Below, piece by piece: positions 26,201 through 27,743 of a stretch of DNA of 64,000 nt. Where the stretch lies: the sequence record ON210139.1. One strand, 5' to 3'. A model generated the notes under the pieces. The model ran no database searches and was not told where the DNA came from. It saw only the letters and a program-made list of their open reading frames with translations. Within the stretch, counting starts at the first letter, position 1. Each line of letters starts with the position of its first letter. The stretch is from Escherichia phage EC128. Position numbers and translations under genes: made by a program.

Positions 26201-26781
26201 TGATTAAATTGGTATTCGCTTATTCTCCAACTAAAACGGTCGAAGGCTTTAATGAATTAGCATTTGGTTTAGGTGATGGTTTACCATGGGGACGAGTTAA
26301 AAAGGACCTCCAGAATTTTAAAGCTCGTACCGAAGGTACAATTATGATTATGGGTGCTAAAACGTTCCAGTCATTATCTACATTACTTCCTGGTCGTAGT
26401 CATATTGTAGTGTGTGACCTTGCACGTGATTATCCTGTAACTAAAGACGGCGATTTAGCGCATTTCTATATTACTTGGGAGCAATATATAACTTACATTT
26501 CTGGCGGCGAAATTCAAGTGTCAAGCCCTAACGCACCATTCGAGACTATGCTTGATCAGAATTCTAAAGTAAGCGTAATTGGCGGGCCTGCTCTGTTATA
26601 TGCTGCGTTACCTTATGCGGATGAAGTAGTTGTTTCTCGCATCGTTAAAAGGCATCGTGTTAATTCAACGGTTCAATTAGATGCAAGTTTTCTTGATGAT
26701 ATAAGCAAGCGTGAAATGGTTGAAACGCATTGGTATAAAATAGATGAAGTAACAACCCTTACGGAATCAGTATATAAATGA
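26200..26781 (+). CDS. frd: dihydrofolate reductase
   Basis: 193-aa ORF; recognised as T4 Frd. Confidence 0.95.
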
Positions 26782-26789
26782 AATAACGC

Positions 26790-27149
26790 ATGGCGGAAAA
26801 TATGAATTTTAATTATTACCCTATTCTATTAGAAAAAGACGCGAAACAGCCAAAATGGCAAGGTCCTCAGTTTATTAAAGGTGTCTATCAATTAGTAGTT
26901 CCTAAAGACAAGATTTATAGTAGCTGTTTCACTGAATCCGCTTGCAGTATTTTCGGTAATAGTTCTCCGTATTGGAATTTTGACATAAAGCTGGATAGAA
27001 ATATCGATATTTGGTTGAAAGCTATGGATATTGGTAATATCACGTTTGATGAGAATAATTATCATATTATTGGTCGTTTTTCCAAACGCGGTAAAGAATT
27101 ATATTTCACGCCTGAAATTGAAAGAAAATTTGATGCTAAACCGTATTGA
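26790..27149 (+). CDS. hypothetical protein (115-119 aa) encoded on an insertion between frd and td
   Basis: ORF (best start probably ATG 26802 with GGCGGAAAAT) in a ~415-bp segment flanked by direct repeats AAATGAAA (26776-26783 and 27193-27200). Confidence 0.5.
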   Translation: MAENMNFNYYPILLEKDAKQPKWQGPQFIKGVYQLVVPKDKIYSSCFTESACSIFGNSSPYWNFDIKLDRNIDIWLKAMDIGNITFDENNYHIIGRFSKRGKELYFTPEIERKFDAKPY

Positions 27150-27194
27150 TTATTCAGCTTCATAAAATGTATTATAATTTATATAAGGTACTAA

Positions 27195-27743
27195 ATGAAA
27201 CAATACCAAGATTTAATTAAAGACATTTTTGAAAATGGTTATGAAACTGATGACCGAACGGGCACAGGAACAATTGCTTTGTTCGGTACTAAATTACGCT
27301 GGGATTTAACTAAAGGTTTTCCTGCAGTAACAACTAAGAAGCTCGCCTGGAATGCATGTATTTCTGAGTTATTGTGGTTCTTATCAGGAAGTACTAACGT
27401 AAATGATTTGCGATTAATTCAACATAATTCATTAATTCAAGGCAAAACAGTCTGGGATGAAAATTACGAAAATCAAGCAAAAGATTTAGGATACCATAGC
27501 GGTGAACTTGGTCCAATTTATGGAAAACAGTGGCGTGATTTTGGCGGTGTAGACCAAATTATAGAAGTTATTGATCGTATTAAAAAATTGCCAAATGATA
27601 GGCGTCAAATTGTTTCAGCATGGAATCCAGCTGAACTCAAGCAGATGGCATTACCGCCTTGTCATATGTTCTATCAGTTTAATGTGCGTAATGGCTATTT
27701 GGATTTGCAGTGGTATCAACGATCAGTAGATGTTTTCTTGGGT
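27195..27743 (+). CDS. td: thymidylate synthase, exon 1 (codons 1-183)
   Basis: MKQYQDLIKDIFENGYETDDRTG...; frame closes in the intron just after GGT at 27743. Confidence 0.9.

Follow-up and report, generated by a model that had tools for sequence, protein, structure and literature searches.

A long-resident gene between frd and td of T4-like phages was probably lost from T4 by deletion

Escherichia phage EC128 (sequence record ON210139.1) carries, within the stretch of 64,000 nucleotides (nt) analysed here (the window), a region in which frd, encoding dihydrofolate reductase, and td, encoding thymidylate synthase, are separated by a 417 bp segment that is absent from phage T4 (NC_000866). 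The segment holds an open reading frame (ORF) of 115 amino acids (aa), hereafter ORF X. We consider it probable that the segment is a long-resident gene of T4-like phages, lost from T4 and a few close relatives by deletion, and not a recent insertion. The overlap of frd and td in T4 (ATGA) is most likely a derived state, left by a deletion whose endpoints lay in two copies of a widespread gene-boundary motif, because X is the majority state at this locus, is syntenic across genera and co-diverges with frd, and because phages with the T4-type junction are nested within X-bearing phages. The original prediction, made from the letters of the window, had described a cassette inserted precisely into an ancestral overlap. 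Given the same observations, and the lack of a mobility gene in the segment, that polarity is probably backwards.

The T4 junction and the repeat that bounds the segment

A blastn comparison of the window with T4 aligned both flanks of the segment to T4, with the two alignments overlapping by 12 nt. T4 and the T4-type phage FN, whose Frd is 99% identical in aa sequence to that of the window, both have the 4 bp frd/td overlap that the original prediction had named for T4. In the window, frd ends in ...GTATATAAATGA and the td start lies 417 bp beyond its T4-type position, and the description of the segment as precise and repeat-bounded held up against the T4 sequence. The 8 bp direct repeat AAATGAAA is present as predicted at 26776-26783 and 27193-27200, but the exact repeat is 9 bp long, since extension by one base to the left gives the 9-mer TAAATGAAA in both copies. 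Over 12 nt (26775-26786 against 27192-27203) the copies are identical at 11 positions. They lie 417 bp apart, and TAAATGAAA is the only 9-mer of the window that recurs at exactly this spacing. The left copy is kept in T2, PhiZZ6 and REP1 and is shortened to 8 bp in JQD51.

In a simulated deletion we took out of the window one copy of the repeat together with the DNA between the copies; the product was the junction of T4 and FN base for base, with no filler sequence. T4 thus has flanks identical to those of the window and a junction shorter by 417 bp, with one repeat copy missing and no X. Spontaneous deletions between short direct repeats are established in T4 from studies of rII deletions, and the frd-td junction resembles them in having its endpoints in a short exact repeat, in keeping one copy and in adding nothing. 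It differs in that the event is reconstructed from natural variants rather than observed. In the proposed scenario, X would have been lost by illegitimate deletion (replication slippage or microhomology recombination) between the two copies of TAAATGAAA, and this would have joined the frd stop to the td start, creating the classic ATGA overlap.

On this strand of the window TAAATGAAA occurs eight times, against 1.4 occurrences expected from base composition (5.6-fold over-representation), and half of the copies coincide with the start of an ORF of 100 aa or more. Judged by these contexts it is a recurrent gene-boundary motif, read as AAA TGA AA at the end of frd and as TAA ATG AAA at the start of td. 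Because the repeat is a functional boundary motif, the genes on both sides remain intact and translationally coupled after the deletion. The segment does have a direct repeat at both ends, as a target-site duplication would, though this is unspecific given the abundance of the motif. Three further exact direct repeat pairs of 8-9 bp lie in the same 561 bp that were searched for repeats. Since TAAATGAAA is over-represented at gene starts and other such pairs occur nearby, the repeat is real but on its own no evidence of target-site duplication; microhomology-mediated deletion, by construction, also makes the undeleted allele appear bounded by direct repeats. The search of the 561 bp for a terminal structure returned only short AT-rich inverted matches near the segment ends, none of them convincing, and we regard a 9 nt AT-rich inverted pair (26771-26779 and 27177-27185) as a chance occurrence.

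Distribution of ORF X and of the T4-type junction

Comparison of the junction with those of T4, T2, T6 and RB phages found X to be absent from T4 and present in T2, T6, RB6 and RB32. Our sample comprised about 519 phage records whose flanks reach at least 80% nt identity to those of the window. The full segment with X is found in 356 of these, and the X protein is present at 90% aa identity or more in 362 records, including T2, T6, RB6, RB32, AR1 and HP3. Phage Ozark has an identical protein (100%), and those of T2 and T6 are 99% identical. Its 90%-identity protein cluster has 154 member sequences, every one of which is named hypothetical. The T4-type junction was counted with a 40-nt probe that could seed solely on that junction; it was recovered from 32 records. 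T4 isolates and fragments of T4 sequence, such as the T4 frd-td sequence records M12742 and AH001329 from the 1980s, make up about half of them. X is therefore the majority state in Tequatrovirus and the T4-type junction is rare.

X is the same gene as the one that annotations of T2, T6, RB6, RB32, AR1, HP3 and several hundred further Tequatrovirus genomes place between frd and td as a hypothetical protein. The gene itself is thus already known as a hypothetical annotation in hundreds of genomes, T2 and T6 included, and the window is unusual solely in having a further ATG upstream, at 26790. This codon is replaced by GTG in T2, PhiZZ6 and REP1 and by CTG in JQD51. From these alignments, the conserved start of X is the ATG at 26802 and the start at 26790 is not conserved. 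The predicted ORF of 115-119 aa (26790/26802-27149) is accordingly real and conserved in related phages in its shorter form, the longer form being specific to the window. Reading frd through its stop would reach an ATGA overlap with X at 26802; we rejected this as a relic of a longer frd since it is indistinguishable from chance.

Divergence, constraint and nesting of the T4-type phages

Nucleotide identity of X to T2, PhiZZ6, REP1 and JQD51 was 95.7, 96.8, 98.6 and 88.2%, compared with 95.0, 95.7, 96.9 and 86.5% for frd. Synonymous divergence (dS) to T2 was 0.28 for X and 0.18 for frd. The ratio of nonsynonymous to synonymous divergence (dN/dS) of X was 0-0.05, indicating strong purifying selection; the corresponding frd value for JQD51 is unreliable because the 3' end of frd is frameshifted in the JQD51 record. 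The dN/dS values and a divergence that tracks frd indicate that X is a functional gene, at least as old in the lineage as the divergence of T2, PhiZZ6, REP1 and JQD51. X does not look younger than its flanks: its nt identity and dS are at least those of frd in the four comparisons, and its orthologues are syntenic at 32-66% identity. In the JQD51 record (L015, 806-1423) an extra A ahead of the frd stop shifts the frame and frd is annotated 12 codons longer, overlapping X; product names in that record are displaced by one gene.

Neighbour-joining (NJ) trees of frd and of td exon 1 placed T4 and FN, which have the empty junction, and PM133, which has only the small gene Z described below, inside the X-bearing Tequatroviruses, and the X-bearing JQD51 was sister to the whole group in both. 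The T4-type junction thus behaves as a derived allele: it is nested in both trees (drawn without bootstrap support), occurs in 32 records and has flanks of the local type. The 60-nt bins flanking the junction in FN share 98-100% identity with the window but only 81-85% with Dhakavirus dhabil, from which we conclude that the empty allele arose in place and was not imported.

Synteny in other genera, paralogue Y and gene Z

In at least four other genera the frd-td interval is also occupied by an orthologue of X: Kanagawavirus (Kosakonia phage 305 and Edwardsiella phage PEi26), Jiaodavirus (Mineola), Moonvirus (CF1) and Marfavirus (Potts1). The same holds for the metagenomic contigs L012 and L013, which represent two lineages. 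The neighbours of X in these sequences frequently include Y, a tandem paralogue of X by hhalign (probability 97.2%, E 3.4e-11), and Z, a gene of 68 aa; the gene order is frd-X-Y-Z-td in Potts1 and L012. Identities to the other-genus orthologues are 32-66% for X, 45-50% for Frd and 80-86% for Td, and the order of divergence (L012 > Kanagawavirus > Jiaodavirus/Moonvirus) is common to X and Td. Ancestrally, the frd-td interval of Tevenvirinae and relatives probably contained between one and three small genes, drawn from X, its tandem paralogue Y and the basic, 68-aa Z.

The window may retain a trace of such an array. The 17 nt ahead of the td ATG (27178-27194, + strand), TTTATATAAGGTACTAA, match the 3' end of Y from Kosakonia phage 305, TTTATATTAGGTGCAGA, at 13 of 17 positions in the same register. 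The shuffle p for the local alignment is 0.02-0.03, and JQD51 keeps TAGGTGC. This is suggestive only, but the X-td spacer, including the Shine-Dalgarno sequence AAGGT, could be a relic of the 3' end of a lost Y. That td has its own upstream AAGGT had been noted correctly.

Z constitutes a third allele at the frd-td junction. This basic ORF of 68 aa (isoelectric point (pI) 10) is found in phage PM133 (L002, 1779-1985) and in Dhakavirus dhabil (L009, 1470-1676). One source names it DUF4858; a Pfam scan of Z gave no match. Identity between PM133 and dhabil is 96-98% across Z and the first ~60 nt of td, while frd up to its stop codon and td beyond ~60 nt are of the Tequatrovirus type and only ~80% identical to dhabil. 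On this identity pattern the Z patch of PM133 is an inter-genus, cassette-like recombinational exchange with its left breakpoint at the frd stop/ATGA junction. The position of this breakpoint suggests that gene-boundary motifs at frd-td serve both deletion and exchange.

Alternative histories of the interval

Several observations weigh against the retention of X by descent and its loss from T4. Among the sister genera, the closest ones that were sampled (Dhakavirus IME540 and VR5; Gaprivervirus CJ20) lack X, as does the divergent JK45 (Tequatrovirus jaykay), which was picked from a set of similar records that match td alone and have frd directly adjacent. Because of these X-less lineages, vertical descent needs three or four independent losses, and it is about as parsimonious that their common ancestor lost X and the Tequatrovirus stem later acquired it anew. 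Several of these X-less phages share the ATGA overlap, which occurs in Dhakavirus, Gaprivervirus and JK45. Our NJ trees carry no bootstrap values and rest on short genes that recombine, the match to the Y relic is short (13 of 17), and a flanking repeat of 9 bp (11/12 when extended) would also be expected from insertion with duplication.

The absence of X from the sampled sister genera could mean that the ancestor of Tequatrovirus, Dhakavirus and Gaprivervirus was empty or carried Z only, that stem Tequatrovirus regained X by recombination from an X-bearing relative, and that T4 then lost it again. This history needs a similar number of events to the multiple-loss model, and patch exchange by recombination at the frd-td junction is demonstrated for Z. 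We nevertheless consider it unlikely. No X closer than 66% to that of Tequatrovirus was found in any sampled lineage, the divergence order of X agrees with that of Td, and the 17 nt ahead of td resemble the 3' end of Y, suggesting decay of an X-Y array in place. Presence/absence polymorphism was found within both Tequatrovirus and Dhakavirus, which shows that losses are frequent.

The polarity of the original prediction, in which an ancestor with the ATGA overlap received X as a cassette by illegitimate insertion that duplicated a 9-12 bp target, TAAATGAAA(CAA), appears improbable to us. It accounts for the exact 9 bp repeat at the segment ends (11/12 over 12 nt), for a left copy (ATG AAA TAA) that is one C-to-T change from the td start (ATG AAA CAA), and for the overlap in Dhakavirus, Gaprivervirus and JK45. 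But all known X homologues, down to 32% identity, already sit between frd and td, so a donor would recombine through homologous flanks and leave no target duplication. X is as diverse as its flanks, the T4-type phages are few and nested, the repeated motif is frequent at gene starts and the terminal structure is unconvincing. X also contains no nuclease or transposase motif, and no transposase, integrase or homing nuclease is encoded in the segment, which matches no Pfam, NCBIfam or PADLOC family. X does recall the free-standing homing-endonuclease genes of the seg/mob type in being a small optional ORF between conserved genes with a patchy distribution in the genus. It differs from them in having no GIY-YIG, HNH or other nuclease motif, in co-diverging with its flanks and in being syntenic across genera.

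It is very improbable that the empty junction of T4-type phages was imported by homologous recombination from an empty lineage such as Dhakavirus: the overlap AAATGAAAC is identical in Dhakavirus and Gaprivervirus and inter-genus patches do occur at frd-td, but the FN bins next to the junction are those of the window and not of dhabil, whereas the Z patch of PM133 has a clear Dhakavirus-like td 5' end. Loss of a long-resident X by deletion in place thus remains our preferred explanation.

The ORF X protein

X is a hydrophilic protein of 13.6 kDa with a pI of 8.5. It matches PHROG 1928, a family of unknown function (E 9.5e-36; residues 8-115 on profile positions 2-125 of 126). Searches against Pfam (up to E 1), NCBIfam, PADLOC and PDB sequences gave no match, in agreement with the earlier statement that the ORF has no recognisable motif. 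No nuclease or transposase motif (GIY-YIG, HNH or other) was found in X in profile scans, the homing endonuclease I-TevI being encoded by a separate ORF. Database labels for X as a putative homing endonuclease (in one record), glucose-1-phosphate adenylyltransferase, reductase or putative dihydrofolate reductase were rejected because they are unsupported by any profile. An exhaustive search of 1.84 billion representative proteins recovered just 17 clusters with X homologues, and all of those whose context was examined come from T4-like phages. Seven residues are invariant across X and Y (Q16, W19, G27, G91, F93, K95 and G97, in the 115-aa numbering). We searched the window for other paralogues of X and found none. 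Our literature searches found no paper on ORF X or PHROG 1928, and papers on accessory-gene screens do not mention frd or td.

Two AlphaFold (AF2) models of X (predicted local distance difference test (pLDDT) 78-79, predicted template modelling score (pTM) 0.73-0.74) show a beta-rich domain with one helix. In both, the order of strands and helix is compatible with an OB barrel (five strands, with the helix between strands 3 and 4), but pLDDT drops to 54-65 mid-chain. Structure prediction, proposed earlier for the ORF, yielded no significant similarity to solved OB folds; the likeness to OB-fold nucleic-acid-binding domains (RPA, SSB, Stn1/Ten1, Teb1 and the anticodon-binding domain of LysRS) comes from the predicted model and lies below significance. 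X might be a soluble, mildly basic, single-domain protein with a beta barrel and a helix, acting as a small OB-like binder of nucleic acid or of a partner in nucleotide metabolism, although this model-based assignment is doubtful. X would be translated from the delayed-early/middle polycistronic message of frd-td and would be dispensable in laboratory hosts, as T4 shows.

A 195-aa protein of a Klebsiella-phage-type sequence (P0012) is chimeric: its N-terminal part, weakly similar to an RlaP-like nucleotidyltransferase (E 0.065), is fused to ~35 residues from the C-terminal end of a Jiaodavirus-type X. An insertion may thus have disrupted X in one genome.

Locus layout and neighbouring features

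The features of the frd-td region are listed in Table 1. RB3, RB5, RB6, RB7, RB9 and RB10 share ~96% identity with the window over 20 kb.

Table 1. Coordinates of features in and around the frd-td interval of the EC128 window.
Feature	Position	Strand	Remarks
Nucleotide-metabolism cluster	frd-td region of window		Tequatrovirus (T4-like) type
Gene 32	23944-24849		
frd.3, frd.2 and frd.1 homologues	between gene 32 and 81-aa ORF		
81-aa ORF	25955-26200		between frd.1 and frd; its stop overlaps the frd start
frd (dihydrofolate reductase), 193 aa	26200-26781	+	stop TGA at 26779-26781; from ORF list, annotated frd in matching records
Left repeat copy TAAATGAAA, 9 bp	26775-26783	+	last frd codon AAA, stop TGA and next two bases
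Segment absent from T4, 417 bp	26784-27200 (equally writable as 26775-27191)	+	from blastn of window against T4 and simulated deletion
frd-X spacer, 20 nt, AATAACGCATGGCGGAAAAT	26782-26801	+	includes window-specific alternative ATG at 26790
ORF X, 115 aa (119 aa from 26790)	26802-27149	+	conserved gene, PHROG 1928, function unknown
X-td spacer, 45 nt	27150-27194	+	promoter-like site, ~30-nt variable segment, td Shine-Dalgarno
td Shine-Dalgarno AAGGT	27185-27189	+	5 nt ahead of td ATG
Right repeat copy TAAATGAAA, 9 bp	27192-27200	+	three bases ahead of td start and ATGAAA
td exon 1 (thymidylate synthase)	27195-27746	+	start ATGAAACAATACCAAG; from ORF list, T4 td annotated as two-piece join with I-TevI
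td group I intron	27747-28756	+	carries I-TevI ORF 27875-28612
td exon 2	28757-29071	+	
nrdA.2, nrdA.1 and nrdA	after td exon 2		

A consensus scan of the X-td spacer identified a promoter-like site, TTGATT (27146-27151) and TATTAT (27170-27175) separated by an 18-nt gap, in a scan whose number of sites was not above shuffle expectation. This sigma-70-like site may provide an extra td promoter. A GCTTCA element in the same spacer was picked out by eye as a candidate MotA box. About 30 nt of the spacer (~27154-27183), in the stretch with these two elements (27146-27183), are missing in REP1 and JQD51. No stable RNA structure was predicted for the spacer (z -0.23), and an Rfam scan of 25500-29500 gave no match.

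The 81-aa ORF upstream of frd is very acidic (pI 4.05) and is annotated in FN, PM133, T2 and PhiZZ6. Reference T4 lacks ~200 bp covering this ORF and also lacks X, so its genome is reduced upstream as well as downstream of frd. Both the window and T4 have the td group I intron with I-TevI, and td is uninterrupted in T2, REP1, PhiZZ6 and JQD51. Since T4 has the intron without X and the other four have X without the intron, the two assort independently. Only ~550 bp separate the frd-td junction from the intron insertion site, a distance that homing co-conversion can span.

Implications for T4-like phages

The impact of these findings is modest. The textbook frd/td overlap of T4 is most likely derived and is rare, and reference T4 is a reduced genome at frd-td. 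An X/Y/Z array that is differentially lost or exchanged among T4-like phages would provide a natural system in which to study microhomology deletion and patch recombination. X and Y form a strongly constrained protein family specific to T4-like phages. We think it rather unlikely, but they could represent an undescribed fold family limited to these phages and kept beside frd and td throughout the history of the subfamily, serving as an accessory subunit or regulator of the machinery for deoxynucleoside triphosphate (dNTP) synthesis or as a counter-defence factor. If so, the loss of X would be one reason why T4 differs phenotypically from T2/T6 on wild hosts.
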